From Oligoflexia bacterium (GTDB taxonomy: Bacteria; Bdellovibrionota; Bdellovibrionia; JABDDW01): a DNA stretch of 16,418 nucleotides. The position numbers were made by a program, and so were the translations under genes. Location of the stretch: the NCBI GenBank assembly GCA_043732305.1, contig JAYTHU010000046.1, positions 1 to 16,418 on the forward strand, given 5' to 3'. The notes beneath the pieces are model-generated. The model had not been told where the DNA came from. It did not search any database and worked only from the letters and a program-made list of their open reading frames with translations. Shown piece after piece: positions 1,258 to 16,350 of this stretch. Position 1 is the stretch's first letter, and the number at the start of each line of letters is the position of its first letter.

Positions 1258-2346
1258 TTATCTTGCAAGTTCCAATGCTTCTTTGAAAAATCCCACGATC
1301 TCTGAAGTTTTCATGTCCACCGTTGCGTGTCCAACAGTCAACTCTGCCTTGCAAGTGTGTGGCTTATCCGTCGGGTTGAGTTTTCTAAACATAGCGATTT
1401 TCTTGTCGACCGCCATTTTTAGAAAAGCTTCTTCCATTCGGATCTGACTTTTCTCGAAAGTTAGCTCCATCATATTGGTGTGAGGGATCGCAGGCCGTAT
1501 TTTTATTTCTGGAAAACTAGAAAGTGCCACTGCAATTTCCAAAGCTTTTGCGTGATACATCGCCATTTTGGGAAGTTGACGTTTCAGTCCGTCTCGAGCT
1601 GAAATCACATACGGATAAAGGTGAACCAGGTTCCCGCCATGGCGCCTTTGCCAGATTTTAGCTTCTGTGATCAATTCTCTGCTACCAGCAAGTGCCGCTC
1701 CAGCAATGCCGCCGAGCCCTTTATAAAACGAGACGTAAACAGAATCAAAAAGACTGCTTATCTCTTCATAAGTTTTTTTATAATAGGGTGCACTTTCCCA
1801 AAGTCTTGCGCCATCCATGTGAAGTGAGATTCCATTCTTCTTGCATAAAAGGCTTATCGCCTGAAGTTCTGTCCACTCGGGCAGCGTCCCGCCGAGTTCA
1901 CGATGGGGAATTTCGATGATGGCTGCTGCAAAATCCAGTTTTGATTTGTTGAAATCCTCTGCGTTCAGAACTCGTTGAGATTCTCCAAGAAATTCCGCAG
2001 TCAAACCATGAAGTTCACGGTAAGAATGTTTTTCGTGAATCTCCAAGTGTGAAGTGGCGTGAAAAGCTATTTTCTTGTTTTGCTTTTTATCACAGTAAAT
2101 CCTAATGGCTATGACTTGCGCCATGGTTCCACTTGGCATAAATACCGCAGCGTCTTTGCCTAGAAGTGCAGCTACTTCTTTCTCAAAACTTTCTATCAAT
2201 AGACCTTCACCATAATTATCTGGCACTTCCGCTTTCTTGGCAGTCTGAGCAAGGCGAGCCAATTCTTCCGCAGGTCGAGCAGGGTAATCGCCGTTTAAAA
2301 ATCGATGGCATTTGTGAAAAATGGCGCGAGATTCTTCGTTTGTCAT
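1258..2346 (-). CDS. ltaE: Low-specificity L-threonine aldolase (PLP-dependent, beta-eliminating lyase family)
   Basis: Motifs FMPSGTMAQ, LHMDGARLWE and SFYKGLGG (PLP lysine); 362 aa is typical for the family. Confidence 0.85.
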   Translation of the reverse strand: MTNEESRAIFHKCHRFLNGDYPARPAEELARLAQTAKKAEVPDNYGEGLLIESFEKEVAALLGKDAAVFMPSGTMAQVIAIRIYCDKKQNKKIAFHATSHLEIHEKHSYRELHGLTAEFLGESQRVLNAEDFNKSKLDFAAAIIEIPHRELGGTLPEWTELQAISLLCKKNGISLHMDGARLWESAPYYKKTYEEISSLFDSVYVSFYKGLGGIAGAALAGSRELITEAKIWQRRHGGNLVHLYPYVISARDGLKRQLPKMAMYHAKALEIAVALSSFPEIKIRPAIPHTNMMELTFEKSQIRMEEAFLKMAVDKKIAMFRKLNPTDKPHTCKAELTVGHATVDMKTSEIVGFFKEALELAR

Positions 2347-2405: not shown

Positions 2406-2581
2406 AAAAAAAAACTCCGAAGAACAAATGTGATTTACATCGGCTAACAATAACAAGCTAGGGCGGGGATGGGGGGAGGGGGTTGCCTTCGCTTGCTATT
2501 ATTCGCCGGTGTAATTCGACAATTCGTTCCCGGAGCCTTTAGGGGGGATCAGGGGGAACTGATCGAATCTTGCGATTCTGA
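2406..2581 (-). ncRNA. Candidate sigma54-dependent small RNA with three stem-loops, C-rich loops and a U9 tail
   Basis: Read on the minus strand. SL1: GAAUC-GCAA-GAUUC (2578-2565). SL2: GAUCAG-UUCCCC-CUGAUC (2564-2547). SL3: long interrupted hairpin 2535-2415 with loop AACCCCCUCCCCCCAUCCCC. A U9 run follows (2414-2406). A -24/-12 promoter places +1 at about 2581. Confidence 0.7.
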
Positions 2582-2730: not shown

Positions 2731-3081
2731 TTAGTAAATCCAGGCTGGTAGCTGCTCACATTTGAACCCGAGTGCTTTTTCAGACTCATCTCCGGGCCCT
2801 TTCAAAACGATGCAAGATACATCAAGGTCAGTTGTGTCATGACTAAAATATTCCAAACTCAAAAACCAACTGTGGTCAGCGTAAATATAAAGTCTGCGGC
2901 CATTTTCTGGTGAGTCTTTAATTTCCATAGAGACCTGGGTTTGAGATTTCTCACCGATTCGATTATGAATGGTCGAATAGACATTTTCAGAATATCCACA
3001 GCCTATCTCAATCTTGTCTACGGATAGAGCAAAAGCAGAACCGCTCATTATTGAAATAAGCAGAAACAAAAAAGTCCTCAC
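2731..3081 (-). CDS. Small secreted hypothetical protein
   Basis: GTG start preceded by a GGGGGG RBS-like run; Sec signal peptide (MRTFLFLLISIMSGSAFA); 116 aa. Confidence 0.65.
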   Translation of the reverse strand: MRTFLFLLISIMSGSAFALSVDKIEIGCGYSENVYSTIHNRIGEKSQTQVSMEIKDSPENGRRLYIYADHSWFLSLEYFSHDTTDLDVSCIVLKGPGDESEKALGFKCEQLPAWIY

Positions 3082-8539: not shown

Positions 8540-8971
8540 ATGATTAAAATCAGTAAAATTACTGACTACGGATTCGTGCTTTTAACTAACATGGTTCAAA
8601 GTCAGCGCAAAGATGTTTGGACAGCCAAAGATTTATCAGCGCAGACTCACATTCCTTTGCCAACTGTCGGAAAAATTCTCAAAATTTTATCTCGTGGAGA
8701 AATTCTTGATTCCACTCGTGGAAGTCAGGGTGGATACAAACTCTCCAAAGATCCTGGTTCATTGAGTTTGGCCCACGTCATTGATGTGCTTGAAGGTAAA
8801 ATGTCTGTCACAAATTGTGGGACCAATGGACATATTAAATGTGACATTTTACATTCTTGCCCTAACAAAGCCAACTGGCAAAAAATCAACCACCTGATTT
8901 ACGGTGCTTTAGGAAGTCTCAGTCTAAAAGACATGGCACAGCCCATCCGCGGCAGCTTAAGGAAGTTATGA
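8540..8971 (+). CDS. Rrf2-family SUF-system Fe-S cluster assembly regulator
   Basis: ISKITDYG, winged [14 protein letters not shown], three Cys (C-x7-C-x5-C); first gene of the suf operon with a GAGG RBS. Confidence 0.9.
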
Positions 8972-10416
8972 ATAAAGAAAAAAACAGTTCAATCAAACAG
9001 TTCACTGATCAAGAGTACAAATATGGATTTGTGACTGACGTTGAAAATGATTCTGCACCACGTGGATTGAACGAAGACATTGTTCGTTTTATATCGGCAA
9101 AAAAGAATGAACCAAAATTCTTGCTCGATTGGCGATTAAAAGCTTATGCCCATTGGCTTAAAATGAAAGAGCCCACTTGGGCTCACGTGAATTACCCCAA
9201 AATTGATTTTCAGGACATGATTTATTATTCTGCTCCTAAACCAAAAAAACAATTGAAGAGTTTGGACGAAGTTGATCCTGAACTCAGACAGATGTTTGAT
9301 AAATTAGGAATCAATCTCGCCGAGCAAAAACGTATTAGCGGAGTTGCGGTTGATGCAGTAGTGGATAGTGTTTCGGTTGCCACAACTTACAAACATAAGT
9401 TGCGCGAAGTCGGCGTGATTTTCTGTTCATTTAGTGAAGCCGTGAAAGAACACCCGGAGCTGATCGAAAAATATCTCGGCACAGTTGTTCCTTATCAAGA
9501 TAATTTTTATTCGGCTCTCAACTCGGCCGTTTTCAGCGATGGCTCTTTTTGTTTTATTCCTAAAGGTGTTCGTTGTCCCATGGAGCTTTCCACATATTTC
9601 AGAATCAATGCTGCAGATACTGGTCAGTTCGAGCGCACACTTATTATTGCGGAAGAAAAAAGCAATGTGAGTTACTTGGAAGGTTGCACTGCTCCTCAGC
9701 GAGATAAAAATCAATTGCATGCGGCAGTTGTAGAGATAGTCGCGCTTGAAGGCGCATCAGTTAAATATTCAACTGTTCAAAATTGGTATCCCGGAGACAA
9801 AGAAGGCAAAGGTGGCATATTTAATTTTGTCACCAAACGTGGCGCATGTCGCGGAGCCAACTCTAAGATCTCTTGGACCCAAGTAGAAACAGGTTCTGCT
9901 ATCACTTGGAAATATCCGTCTGTTTTGCTTCAGGGTGACAATTCAACTGGTGAGTTTTATTCGGTTGCCCTCACCAATAATTTGCAGCAAGCCGATACCG
10001 GCACAAAGATGATTCACATCGGAAAAAACACGAAGAGCACAATCATCTCTAAGGGAATTTCAGCAGGCCGCGGTCAAAATACTTATCGTGGATTGGTCAA
10101 GATCCTAAAGAGTGCTGATGGCGCTAGAAATTATTCTCAGTGTGACTCTTTGCTCATTGGATCAAAATGCGGGGCCCATACGGTTCCGTACTTGGAAGTA
10201 AAAAACAAAACAGCGCAGATTGAACATGAAGCCTCAACATCAAAGATCAGCGAAGATCAGATATTTTATTGTCGTCAAAGAGGATTGTCTCAGGAAGATG
10301 CCGTTTCACTGATAGTGAATGGTTTTTGTAAGGAAGTTTTTCAAAACCTTCCCATGGAGTTTGCTGTCGAAGCGCAGAAACTTTTGGGAGTGAGTCTGGA
10401 AGGAAGTGTTGGCTGA
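8968..10416 (+). CDS. sufB: Fe-S cluster assembly protein SufB
   Basis: [52 protein letters not shown]. Confidence 0.98.
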
Positions 10417-11150
10417 TGCTCTCAATTAGAAATCTACACGCTAAAGTAGACGGTAAAGAAATTCTTAAGGGTTTGAGTTTGGAAGTAGGGTATGGAGAAG
10501 TTCATGCCATCATGGGGCCTAATGGCTCGGGAAAAAGCACCCTCGCGTCAATCTTAGCGGGCCGAGACAATTATGAAATACTAGAGGGTGAGATTTTCTT
10601 CGAAGGAAAAAATCTTCTCGAGATGACTCCTGAAGTGCGCGCTTGTGAAGGTTTGTTCCTTGCGTTTCAGTACCCTGTCGAAATTCCCGGCGTTTCAAAT
10701 ATTTATTTTTTGAAAGCGGCACTCAATGCAGCAAGAAAATATCGCGGCGAACCTGAGTTGGACGCTATCGATTTTCTCTCTCTAGCAAAAGAAAAAATGC
10801 GGCTCCTCGATATGGACAAAAAATTGATCGACCGAGCCGTCAATCAGGGTTTTTCTGGCGGCGAGAAAAAGCGCAATGAAATATTTCAAATGTCAGTGCT
10901 CGAGCCAAAGCTTTCCGTACTCGATGAAATTGACTCTGGCTTAGATATTGATGCTCTGAGAATTGTTTCCCAGGGCGTGAATTCTGTGAGATCGGCTAAA
11001 CGTTCTATGGTCGTCATTACTCATTATCAAAGACTTCTTAATTATATTGTTCCCGATAAAATTCACGTGCTCTCGAGTGGTAAAATAGTTCGATCTGGTG
11101 GCAAAGAACTTGCGCTTGAACTTGAACAGAAGGGTTACTCACGTGTTTGA
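10416..11150 (+). CDS. sufC: Fe-S cluster assembly ATPase SufC
   Basis: Walker A GPNGSGKST, FQYPVEIPGV, FSGGEKKRNEI, LDEIDSGLDIDAL. Confidence 0.98.
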   Translation: MLSIRNLHAKVDGKEILKGLSLEVGYGEVHAIMGPNGSGKSTLASILAGRDNYEILEGEIFFEGKNLLEMTPEVRACEGLFLAFQYPVEIPGVSNIYFLKAALNAARKYRGEPELDAIDFLSLAKEKMRLLDMDKKLIDRAVNQGFSGGEKKRNEIFQMSVLEPKLSVLDEIDSGLDIDALRIVSQGVNSVRSAKRSMVVITHYQRLLNYIVPDKIHVLSSGKIVRSGGKELALELEQKGYSRV

Positions 11151-12408
11151 CCACGCAGTCGCAGAATTACAAAAATTAGCCTGGGATAAATTTAAAGCCC
11201 AAGGTCTCCCCACAACAGACGACGAAAACTGGAAATACACTCAGCTCTCAAAGTATAAAAGTCTTGATCTATTGAATCTCGGCGATGAAACTCATGGCGG
11301 GTCAGAATATGCTATCGAATCAGTGGATAGTCCGATCCTTTCGAGTTCGGTTCTTAAACCTTATGAAGGTTTTCCAACTCTCTTGGTTTTCATCAATGGC
11401 TTTTTCAGTGAGACCAATTCCAGAATAACTAAAGAGGCTGGTCTGCACATTGATTTCATGTCGAAATCCAATGGCAACACGCGCGTTCAAAGGCTGATGG
11501 AAAAGTTTTTATCGAGACAACTTAAAGAGACTGCATTTGGAAATTTGAATGCGGCTCATGCGACTGACGGATTGGTTGTTGAGATCGAACCGTTTGCTGA
11601 AATCAAACAACCTATTTTGATCCTAAATTTTTCTCATCATCGTGATAGCACCATGAATTACCGAAACATCATCTCTGTAGGTGAGGGCGCTAAATGTAGT
11701 TTTATTGAAGTCACCAAAGGGCCTGAGACTGTTTACGCAAATAATATTGTGACTCAAGTGGATTTGGACGCCCATTCGACTGTCCAATTTTATCGAGTTC
11801 AAGAAGAGGGAACGAAATCTCTTCATATTCATAATCTTTGTGTAGAGCAAAAGCGCTCCAGCACTTTTGAGGCTCATCTGTTTGCTGTTGGAGGAGCTTT
11901 ATCTCGCCATAATGTGGATGTGAATTTTCTGGAAGAAGGCGGCAGCGCTAAACTCTTTGGTTTATTTTCGGCTAATGGCAGTCAACATACGGATCATCGA
12001 TTGTTCGTTGATCACGCTGTGCCCAATTGTCAGAGTGAGCAAGTTTATAAAGGTATTTTGGACACAGATTCTCGTGGCGTATTTAACGGTGCGATTATGG
12101 TGCGTGAAGGTGCTGATCAAACCAATGCTCGGCAATCAAATAAAAACCTCCTGCTCTCATCAAATGCTGAGATCGATACTAAACCTCAATTGGAAATTTA
12201 TGCCGATGACGTGAAATGCAGTCATGGCGCAACGGTTGGGCAGTTGGACAATGAAGCTATTTTCTATCTGCGCGCTCGCGGGATTGACGAGCGATTAGCT
12301 CGACAAATTTTGACCCGAGCCTTTGCTATCGAAATGATTGAAAAAATTGGAAGCGACAAAGTCAAGGAAGTTTTTGATCGCGTTTTGCAAAACTGGTTTA
12401 ATTATTAA
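11143..12408 (+). CDS. sufD: Fe-S cluster assembly protein SufD
   Basis: ENWKYT, GVFNG, KPQLEIYADDVKCSHGATVGQLD, FYLRARGI. Likely start is GTG 11143 after GAAGGG, overlapping the sufC stop; the ORF track starts at 11098. Confidence 0.95.
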   Translation: MFDHAVAELQKLAWDKFKAQGLPTTDDENWKYTQLSKYKSLDLLNLGDETHGGSEYAIESVDSPILSSSVLKPYEGFPTLLVFINGFFSETNSRITKEAGLHIDFMSKSNGNTRVQRLMEKFLSRQLKETAFGNLNAAHATDGLVVEIEPFAEIKQPILILNFSHHRDSTMNYRNIISVGEGAKCSFIEVTKGPETVYANNIVTQVDLDAHSTVQFYRVQEEGTKSLHIHNLCVEQKRSSTFEAHLFAVGGALSRHNVDVNFLEEGGSAKLFGLFSANGSQHTDHRLFVDHAVPNCQSEQVYKGILDTDSRGVFNGAIMVREGADQTNARQSNKNLLLSSNAEIDTKPQLEIYADDVKCSHGATVGQLDNEAIFYLRARGIDERLARQILTRAFAIEMIEKIGSDKVKEVFDRVLQNWFNY

Positions 12409-12428
12409 ATTTTTTATTAGGTTGAATT

Positions 12429-13658
12429 ATGAATGATTTAGAAAACAAATTAGAAAAAATACGTGCAGATTTTCCTATCCTGCACACTAAGGTGCGTGGA
12501 AAAAACCTGGTATACTTAGACAACGCCGCAACCACACATAAACCATTGTCCGTGATCAAGTCACTTGAAACCTATTACGAGCAAACCAACGCTAACGTTC
12601 ATCGTGGCGTTCATTACCTGAGTGAGAAAGCCACAAAGGAATACGAAGCTTCTCGAGATATAATTCAGAAATTTGTCGGAGCTAAATCCCGCAAGGAAAT
12701 TATTTTTACTCGCGGAACTACCGACGCGATCAATCTCGTCGCGCAAGCCTATGGCCGTAATCAGCTTAAACCCGGGGATGAAGTTCTCATCACGGAGATG
12801 GAGCATCACTCAAACATTGTTCCATGGCAGATGGTTTGCGAGCAAACCGGAGCGAAGCTTCAGGTCACAAACGTTTTGGAAAATGGCGATCTCGATATGG
12901 AGTCGTTTGAAAAACTTCTCAACGATAAAACTAAAGTCGTGAGCGTCGTTCATATTTCAAACACATTAGGATCTATCAATCCTATTAAGGAAATTATTAA
13001 AAAAGCTCATGCCGTGGGAGCTATTGCTGTTATTGATGGAGCTCAATCTATTCAACATTTGCCCGTGAATGTGGCAGATCTTGATTGCGATTTTTATGCG
13101 TTTTCCGGTCATAAGTTATACGGTCCCACTGGAATTGGGGTTCTCTACGGGAAAGAAAAATTACTTGAAGTCATGCCTCCATACCAAGGTGGTGGTGATA
13201 TGATTCGCACTGTGAGTTTTGAAAAAACGACTTATAACGATCTCCCTTATAAATTTGAAGCGGGGACACCTCACATTGCTGGTGCTATTGGATTGGGCGT
13301 AGCCGCAAATTATATAACCACTTTGGGTTTCAATTTTATTCAGGAGCAGGAAACATTTCTGCTAAAGATAGCTACAGCTAAACTGAATGAAATGCCCGAA
13401 GTTCGAATTATCGGAACGACTGAGAATAAATCTTCAGTGATTTCGTTTTTACTCAAAGATATTCATGCCCATGACGTGGGAACAATTTTAGATCAAGAGG
13501 GGGTCGCTGTGAGAGCTGGACATCATTGCACTCAGCCGCTTATGGATAAGTTTAAAGTTCCGGCGACGGCTCGGGCTTCATTTTCATTTTACAATAAAGA
13601 ATCTGAGATCGACGAGTTGATCAAGGCGATTAAAAAAACTTTGGAGATTTTTAAATGA
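12429..13658 (+). CDS. sufS: Cysteine desulfurase SufS
   Basis: YLDNAATT, EHHSN, FSGHKLYGPTG, FEAGTP, and the group II catalytic motif RAGHHC. Confidence 0.97.
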   Translation: MNDLENKLEKIRADFPILHTKVRGKNLVYLDNAATTHKPLSVIKSLETYYEQTNANVHRGVHYLSEKATKEYEASRDIIQKFVGAKSRKEIIFTRGTTDAINLVAQAYGRNQLKPGDEVLITEMEHHSNIVPWQMVCEQTGAKLQVTNVLENGDLDMESFEKLLNDKTKVVSVVHISNTLGSINPIKEIIKKAHAVGAIAVIDGAQSIQHLPVNVADLDCDFYAFSGHKLYGPTGIGVLYGKEKLLEVMPPYQGGGDMIRTVSFEKTTYNDLPYKFEAGTPHIAGAIGLGVAANYITTLGFNFIQEQETFLLKIATAKLNEMPEVRIIGTTENKSSVISFLLKDIHAHDVGTILDQEGVAVRAGHHCTQPLMDKFKVPATARASFSFYNKESEIDELIKAIKKTLEIFK

Positions 13659-14110
13659 GTTCTGAGTTACGTGATCTGTATCAAGAAGTTATTGTGGATC
13701 ACTCGAAACGTCCGCGAAATTTTAAGAAAATCACGGATGCTACTAAAGATGCCGAGGGTTTTAATCCACTCTGTGGAGATCGACTTCATCTATATTTGAA
13801 AATAGAAGACGGAAGAATTGTCGATGCTACATTTGAAGGTCAAGGCTGCGCGATTTCAACAGCGTCAGCTTCCATGATGACGGAGATTCTCAAGGGAAAA
13901 ACGGTTGATGATTCCAAAACTATTTTTGAACAATTTCACAAACTGGTTTTAGACGGATCGGAACCTGCAGAGAACGATTCCAAGCTTGGAAAGCTTGCCG
14001 TGTTTGCCGGCGTTTATGAATATCCCGCTCGCGTGAAATGCGCAAGCCTGCCCTGGCACACGCTGAAATCAGCGTTAGATAATTCTCCTGAGCCAGCTAA
14101 AACAGAATAA
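13655..14110 (+). CDS. sufU: SUF-system NifU-family protein SufU
   Basis: LYQEVIVDH, NPLCGD, GCAISTASAS, RVKCA. Confidence 0.95.
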   Translation: MSSELRDLYQEVIVDHSKRPRNFKKITDATKDAEGFNPLCGDRLHLYLKIEDGRIVDATFEGQGCAISTASASMMTEILKGKTVDDSKTIFEQFHKLVLDGSEPAENDSKLGKLAVFAGVYEYPARVKCASLPWHTLKSALDNSPEPAKTE

Positions 14111-14138
14111 AAGAATTATTAAATGATTGGAATTTTCT

Positions 14139-14696
14139 ATGATTGGATTTGAACGAAAACAAGCAGTGCTTTCCAGAGACACAAACGTGGTGCAGATCCC
14201 AAGCGGTGACGCGATGACTTTGCTTTCTGGAACTGCTGTGACAATCACTCAAACACTCGGCGGAAATTATACTGTCATTACCGATCAAGGGTTTATGGTT
14301 CGCATCGGCGGAAAAGATGCCGATAGCATTGGCGAGAAATTGCCTGACGTTATTCAGATCGATACCGATCAAATCACCAAGGACAACGTAGAGAAAAATG
14401 TTTGGCAGCAATTGCAAAGCGTTTACGATCCCGAAATTCCCGTGAGTATTGTCGAATTGGGACTTGTTTATAGAATGGATCTTTCTGAACTTGCGCCTCA
14501 TGAATTCAAAGCTGATGTAGAGATGACTCTCACTGCTCCAGGATGCGGTATGGGACAGGTCTTGAGAGATGACGTGGAGCAAAGAGTTAAAGACGTTCCA
14601 GGCGTGAAGCAGGTGACTGTAGCGGTTGTTTTAGATCCACCGTGGGATCGAACAATGATGACCGAAGCGGCTAAACTTCAATTGGGAATGTTCTGA
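14139..14696 (+). CDS. sufT: Fe-S assembly protein SufT (DUF59 with N-terminal extension)
   Basis: YDPEIP, TLTAPGCGMG, PPWDRTMMTEAAKLQLG; N-terminal ITQTLGGNYTV. Likely start is ATG 14139; the ORF track gives TTG 14127. Confidence 0.9.
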   Translation: MIGFERKQAVLSRDTNVVQIPSGDAMTLLSGTAVTITQTLGGNYTVITDQGFMVRIGGKDADSIGEKLPDVIQIDTDQITKDNVEKNVWQQLQSVYDPEIPVSIVELGLVYRMDLSELAPHEFKADVEMTLTAPGCGMGQVLRDDVEQRVKDVPGVKQVTVAVVLDPPWDRTMMTEAAKLQLGMF

Positions 14697-16142: not shown

Positions 16143-16219
16143 GCGGGTTTAGCTCAGTTGGCTAGAGCGATACCTTGCCAAGGTATAGGTCGAGGGTTCG
16201 AGTCCCTCAACCCGCTCCA
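16143..16219 (+). tRNA. tRNA-Gly (GCC)
   Basis: Acceptor stem GCGGGTT/AACCCGC; D arm GCTC..GAGC; anticodon arm ATACC-TTGCCAA-GGTAT; T arm GAGGG-TTCGAGT-CCCTC; U73 discriminator and encoded CCA. Confidence 0.97.
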
Positions 16220-16233
16220 ATCTTGACAATAGG

Positions 16234-16350
16234 CGAACCCAAATCCGAAGATCGAATAAGTCGAAACCCAAATCCGAAGATCGAATAAGTCGAACCCAAA
16301 TCCGAAGATCGAATAAGTCGAACCCAAATCCGAAGATCGAATAAGTCGAA
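16234..16350 (+). repeat. Four tandem copies of a 28-bp unit (CGAACCCAAATCCGAAGATCGAATAAGT)
   Basis: Units at 16234-16261, 16262-16290 (one extra A), 16291-16318 and 16319-16346, plus a partial CGAA. No spacers. Confidence 0.95.

Follow-up and report, generated by a model that had tools for sequence, protein, structure and literature searches.

A conserved RNA family with C-rich loops behind a sigma-54 promoter consensus in one order of the Bdellovibrionota

We analysed a window of 16,418 nucleotides from an Oligoflexia bacterium and found that the minus-strand element at 2581..2406 is a real, uncatalogued and conserved RNA family with covariation support. It is very probably a standalone RNA gene read from a sigma-54 promoter, and we put at about 0.6 the probability that it is such a gene and that its RNA acts in trans by pairing C-rich loops with G-rich ribosome-binding sites, without Hfq or ProQ. 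This class of mechanism, C-loop pairing at G-rich sites, is already known. The transcript of about 175 nt and its +1 near 2581 are predicted. Inspection of the minus strand placed the two hairpins, the C linker, the rod, the 20-nt loop and the U9 tract named in the initial annotation exactly where they had been described:

2697-2681, minus strand: repeat CCA-N3-TGGAAC, about 90 nt from the promoter on its upstream side; putative site of an enhancer-binding protein
2607-2592, minus strand: promoter consensus of the sigma-54 type (-24/-12), with +1 predicted at about 2581
2578-2565, minus strand: hairpin 1, GCAA (GNRA) loop; the stem is conserved, the loop and the length vary among homologues
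2564-2547, minus strand: hairpin 2, UUCCCC loop, conserved as C-rich; candidate seed
2546-2542, minus strand: single-stranded linker of five C, in this genome only
about 2536-2414, minus strand: long rod; basal and apical stems are conserved, the middle varies in sequence and stays paired
2484-2465, minus strand: apical loop of 20 nt that holds three C runs; the chief candidate seed
2414-2406, minus strand: U9 tract, predicted 3' end, forming a non-canonical terminator with the long rod
1258..2346, minus strand: threonine-aldolase-like gene (PF01212), start at 2346; downstream neighbour, outside the element

The predicted fold of the minus strand reached -68 kcal/mol (z -9.65) and was equalled by none of 200 shuffled sequences, whereas the plus strand folded at -61.9 kcal/mol (z -2.83) and 3 of 200 shuffles were as good. 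Together with covariation that tolerates G-U pairs, this difference upholds the strand choice and the RNA-level structure originally proposed. The apical loop was unpaired with a predicted probability of 1.0, and in folds of the long forms runs of 4-7 C were left unpaired. No reading frame of at least 10 codons was present in this copy of the RNA and none was common to six full-length forms. A DNA search detected a single copy of the 175-nt locus in this genome. The consensus terminator scan did not list the U9 tract at 2406-2414; among the homologues, G001, L041 and L046 have a U tract after the rod, while the tract of G002 and G004 is weak.

Six further long homologues were found, all in one order of the Bdellovibrionota. 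In the DNA search, which covered 61 genomes, four of the five family members matched significantly, and a model of the apical stem found five of the six genomes of the order, these five being its own training set. In the sixth genome, G003 (73% complete), the contig takes in the upstream repeat and the promoter and ends after about 16 transcribed bases, so at a minimum the promoter and the start of the RNA are present in 6/6 genomes of the order. Metagenome contigs added two long homologues, L041 and L046, out of 30 scanned loci, the other 28 being dropped as poly-C chance matches with neither promoter nor hairpin; a pattern scan of genome contigs returned four loci, namely three homologues already known and one chance match. 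Conservation among the long homologues extends to the promoter, to hairpin 2 and its C loop, to the basal and apical stems and to the C-rich loop. Both hairpin 2 with a C-rich loop and the C runs of the apical loop are conserved in 7/7 long forms. The GNRA cap and the C linker, to which the initial annotation had drawn attention, are both real in this copy, but they occur in only one of the seven long homologues and carry no weight; in place of the linker, the rod of four homologues shows a C-rich bulge on its 3' arm.

All six full-length long forms (172-244 nt) folded with z-scores of -7.0 to -10.4, each better than its own reverse complement, and they keep 3-6 C runs open, the runs shifting in position while their number stays. 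The loops are conserved in C content and much of the stem sequence drifts; the apical stem is nearly invariant in sequence, and the rod carries conserved bulges and G-U pairs. In the apical 23-pair helix 93.5% of cells were paired, with 6 of the 23 pairs changed on both sides; none of 500 shuffles reached this level and slid controls gave 26-52%, in a test that is favourable and not independent, since the structure was drawn by us from the same seven related sequences. Compensatory changes, whose absence among homologues had been named as a case against the RNA, do occur in the apical stem. Additionally, three 151-nt contigs from three other studies had matches confined to the RNA or its promoter, and their changes in the apical stem kept or improved the pairing; at a depth below 5 these contigs are weak evidence. 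Among the sequencing runs listed as containing this DNA there was no RNA run, a result that carries no information on expression. The element could in principle be an unexpressed palindrome or repeat of the DNA and not an RNA. Strand asymmetry, G-U-tolerant covariation, a promoter conserved at constant distance and the single genomic copy make this extremely unlikely.

The sigma-54 promoter claimed in the initial annotation was confirmed as a consensus at 2607-2592, conserved at a constant distance from the RNA, in a genome that encodes RpoN and has 15 strong activator matches. Its TGGCA and TTGCT blocks are invariant in 5/5 aligned genomes and are also present in L041 and L046. Sigma-54 consensus sites number 32 in this genome, against about 5 expected. 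Of 13 syntenic loci scored, 11 have the repeat CCA-N3-TGGAAC at 77-122 nt upstream of the promoter and the other two have a one-letter variant; the repeat accompanies only this one of the 32 consensus promoters of the genome, and a looser form was seen at 2 of 19 promoters of the short look-alike RNA described below. The repeat may be the site of one dedicated activator. The features that characterise sigma-54-dependent sRNAs, that is, a -24/-12 consensus, an upstream repeat, RpoN and activators, were all found. We also noticed that many of the 32 sites sit 30-70 nt ahead of genes whose products begin like secreted proteins.

The neighbourhood of the element bears on two cis-acting explanations, which taken together we consider very improbable. 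One of them, an attenuating leader of the threonine-aldolase-like gene, had been offered in the initial annotation because the aldolase gene starts only 60 nt beyond the U tract. A sigma-70 promoter was not detected in 2300-2800, and as a terminator the long rod is non-canonical, so some read-through into the aldolase gene is possible and may feed it. The aldolase gene is downstream in none of the five homologues that have downstream DNA, which makes a leader unlikely and largely excludes it; four of these five face a convergent gene, murJ in two of them. In this genome murJ is also convergent, 1.8 kb further on, so the aldolase gene looks inserted at this locus. In addition, the rod persisted in the extended fold, and 361 of 6395 near-optimal folds opened its base. 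The other explanation is that the element acts in cis on the divergent M16 peptidase gene, from which all six other long forms (6/6) diverge; beside the present copy, however, the M16 neighbour has been lost. Just upstream of the RNA gene, at 2731-3081 on the minus strand, lies a gene whose 116-aa product is signal-peptide-like and has no Pfam match; a run of six G at 3094-3089 precedes the start of this gene, a possible local target.

A shorter RNA of 75-85 nt occupies the same place beside the M16 gene at seven loci in three other families. In these forms a C run at the 5' end is followed by two hairpins, one with a CCCC loop on a stem that resembles hairpin 2 of the long forms, the other a terminator hairpin with a C loop; most carry the upstream repeat, and their stems show two-sided changes. 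The shared locus, repeat and hairpin order suggest that the long and the 75-85-nt forms are orthologous, with the short terminator hairpin having probably expanded into the long rod in this order. A promoter followed by a C-rich RNA was missing from 26 of 30 and from 16 of 20 M16-upstream loci, which include G003, where the contig ends; the syntenic family is thus patchy.

Comparison with known RNAs supported the view that the family is uncatalogued. Rfam gave no match in the region of the element at E up to 5 and, with the limit raised to E 10, none for 20 related loci, the 6C and Pxr models being included, in agreement with the initial annotation, which had recognised no known family. It had named an Rfam match such as 6S as the outcome that would count against it: RF00013 did not match here, and the 6S RNA of this genome is on contig C236 (95.7 bits). 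SRP RNA was likewise rejected, as RF00169 did not match here and the SRP RNA of the genome is on contig C162. Literature searches, whose coverage lay mostly outside subscription papers, returned no description of this RNA family. Among the kinds of RNA compared, the defining features were present only for a working kind, C-rich-loop pairing sRNAs, characterised as a standalone gene with exposed, conserved C-rich loops.

Four published systems, described here from the available parts of the papers cited, come close in some respects. The 6C RNA (B11) of Actinobacteria has stem-loops with C-rich loops and binds many mRNAs without a chaperone (PMC6486639). Our element also has C-rich loops on stem-loops, with 4-7 unpaired C compared with about six, which is a resemblance only: it differs in having no Rfam match, in belonging to another phylum, and in its sigma-54 promoter, long rod and 20-nt loop. 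The cuckoo RNAs of Alphaproteobacteria (CcsR, NfeR1) carry CCUCCUCCC in each of 2-4 adjacent hairpins of 24-50 nt; they share with our family several anti-Shine-Dalgarno-like loops per RNA, variable stems and several related copies (PMC4615179), whereas our family has neither CCUCCUCCC nor such an array of hairpins, and no Rfam match was found. CJnc190 of Campylobacter and RepG of Helicobacter use a C/U-rich loop to pair with a G-rich 5' region in an Hfq-less host, and the long duplex of CJnc190 is cut by RNase III (PMC8687705). The C-rich loops, the Hfq-less host and the candidate pairing with G-rich sites are similar here; we found no sequence link to these RNAs, and the present element has instead several C seeds and a sigma-54 promoter. 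Pxr of Myxococcus has three stem-loops, a predicted sigma-54 promoter with an upstream enhancer region and an Hfq-less host (PMC5684412, in whose main text the word "cytosine" is missing). It resembles our element in the predicted sigma-54 promoter with an upstream site, the stem-loops and the lack of Hfq, and differs in that our element has no Rfam match to it and no NtrC-type activator gene beside it. Within the same bacterial class, APsRNA1-7, merRNA and the hit-locus sRNA of B. bacteriovorus are set apart by their published coordinates, by which none lies at amidase-rph (about 2.62 Mb) or in the interval from fliL to the M16 gene (about 1.02 Mb).

The conserved open C runs on drifting stems, as in 6C and in CJnc190/RepG, which have been shown to pair with G-rich sites, led us to favour pairing as the mechanism. 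One dedicated enhancer-binding protein would bind the upstream repeat and fire the promoter on a signal; the stems would hold 3-6 C runs open, and G-C-rich contacts with G-run or GGAGG sites would block 30S loading on many mRNAs, so that translation would be repressed without Hfq or ProQ, neither of which had a match in this 98.4% complete genome. RNase III, which like CsrA is present in the genome, may trim the long rod. The G runs of this genome peak 13 to 9 nt before starts, the starts having been chosen with a Shine-Dalgarno score. Predicted pairing of the apical loop below -15 kcal/mol was found for 289 of 2543 start regions and for 166 of as many mid-gene windows; since Shine-Dalgarno sequences will pair with any C-rich loop, these scores are weak evidence. 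The trans-acting, multi-seed translational regulator of the initial annotation is kept as the best inference from conserved, exposed C runs, with no specific target established. The nearly invariant sequence of the apical stem suggests a site for a protein or a nuclease, beyond what pairing explains.

The long RNA probably works beside a look-alike RNA of about 55 nt, whose upstream region differs. A second sigma-54 unit, at G000:C157:9376-9464 on the minus strand (locus L135), lies beside an amidase gene, and its predicted RNA of about 55-60 nt combines a C run at the 5' end with a single C-loop terminator hairpin. The pattern of promoter plus C run was found in 109 of 251 class genomes, compared with 1 of 251 for the reversed control. 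In 28 sequences of the look-alike, 94.5% of the cells of an 11-pair stem were paired and five pairs had changed on both sides, which none of 500 shuffles reached. A model of the look-alike, which includes its promoter, matched 131 of 150 class genomes; outside the class it produced nothing beyond weak matches, in 7 of 126 genomes. The gene mostly adjoins an amidase gene, in either orientation. The short-RNA model had no match anywhere in the window; cross-matches between the look-alike and the long RNA were weak, the apical-stem model hitting the short look-alike at E 0.45. A viral scan for the look-alike gave nine loci, none of them convincing.

In the supplement of PMC3627812 the promoter row of Bd2697 contains the 3' arm and the U tract of the look-alike, followed by the mapped start of the gene, so B. 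bacteriovorus carries the look-alike; we infer from this published table that the class includes Bdellovibrio. In the available parts of the papers the look-alike is not among the eight sRNAs of PMC3627812, nor is it the hit-locus RNA of PMC3818213; as far as these parts go, both papers describe phase-specific RNAs and no validated target. The main value of our finding is the route that it opens to this look-alike in a genetically tractable bacterium, where it can be asked whether sigma-54 C-loop RNAs gate translation in the predatory cycle. Six class genomes of 1.2-1.5 Mb were searched, of which five (G103, G126, G130, G136 and G145) gave no look-alike match and the sixth, G148, gave a marginal one; in some genomes of this size G-run start sites are near background level.

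Candidate targets were sought among genes with G-rich sites, using gene and signal-peptide calls from crude in-house scripts. In this genome signal peptides were called for 62 of 150 genes with a run of at least four G before the start, compared with 176 of 715 genes with ordinary sites, and the share rose to 11/15 for six-G sites (p 3e-4, adjusted for site strength); no such trend was seen in a control window further upstream. The link held in a 400-kb sample of G023 (14/22 G-run vs 45/119, p 0.03) and failed in a 400-kb sample of G051 (11/37 vs 29/87). An 800-kb control sample of G258, which has no short-RNA model match, pointed in the same direction (11/25 vs 73/240, p 0.18). With two of three carrier genomes in favour and the same trend in the control, we regard the link between G runs and secreted proteins as a lead only. 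Two G-rich candidates, which from their sequences we take to be ftsZ and divIVA, were not supported as conserved targets: ftsZ had runs of at least four G in 8 of 15 class genomes and 11 of 34 outside (p 0.21), and divIVA gave a mixed result, with 14 of 30 loci left unparsed. Class-wide counts of GGGGG and AGGAG before ATGAA, compared by eye in a few genera, showed no clean link to the RNAs, a contrast with little power because the short RNA is nearly universal in the class. This genome showed no enrichment of a tail that had seemed to recur behind terminators.

The absence of a clean target signal in the G-run/signal-peptide, ftsZ and divIVA tests could also be explained if the open C runs titrated a C-binding protein instead of pairing with mRNA, as CsrB and CrcZ titrate their proteins. 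Such a decoy would fit repeated motifs whose number counts more than their place, the several look-alike RNAs per genome and the nearly invariant apical stem. CsrA itself was rejected as the partner: decoys of the CsrB/RsmZ type have many GGA motifs in their loops, yet the long forms contain 2-4 GGA each and the short forms none, although CsrA is present. As our analysis identified no C-binding partner and published C-loop sRNAs, in the parts available, act by pairing (PMC6486639, PMC8687705), we consider a decoy unlikely.

It is also conceivable that the 175-nt form is mainly a precursor, in which RNase III cuts the rod and frees a short hairpin with a C loop, similar to the 55-nt look-alike. 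Such a role would be compatible with pairing and fits the conserved 23-pair helix, the presence of RNase III, the E 0.45 match mentioned above and the maturation of CJnc190 by RNase III cleavage of its own duplex (available text of PMC8687705). The conserved bulges and G-U pairs in the rod and the further seeds outside the apical hairpin speak against it, and we think it improbable. To return to pairing, a broader scheme is that in bacteria of the Bdellovibrio class a set of sigma-54 RNAs, each with its own activator, forms a chaperone-free translational switch: the G-run site would label secreted, predation-related mRNAs for silencing at one step of the life cycle, and the long RNA would be the multi-seed member in its order. 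We put this forward tentatively, as a rather doubtful extension.

Other loci had a similar appearance. A third type (L146, G004:C92; L148, G005:C6; L186, G026:C17) has a sigma-54 promoter, a rod of about 90-100 nt, a C-rich loop and a U tract; this rod was not found in the genome studied here. At L178, L179 (family f22), L181 and L188, other sigma-54 promoters are followed by structured, C-rich non-coding stretches, and L178 and L179 have a long-range stem in common. Elsewhere in the window, translations indicate an Rrf2-like regulator followed by an apparent suf iron-sulfur cluster operon at 8540-14696 on the plus strand. A tRNA gene lies at 16143-16216, also on the plus strand, and behind it, at about 16230-16340, the reverse-frame translation contains a duplicated segment.
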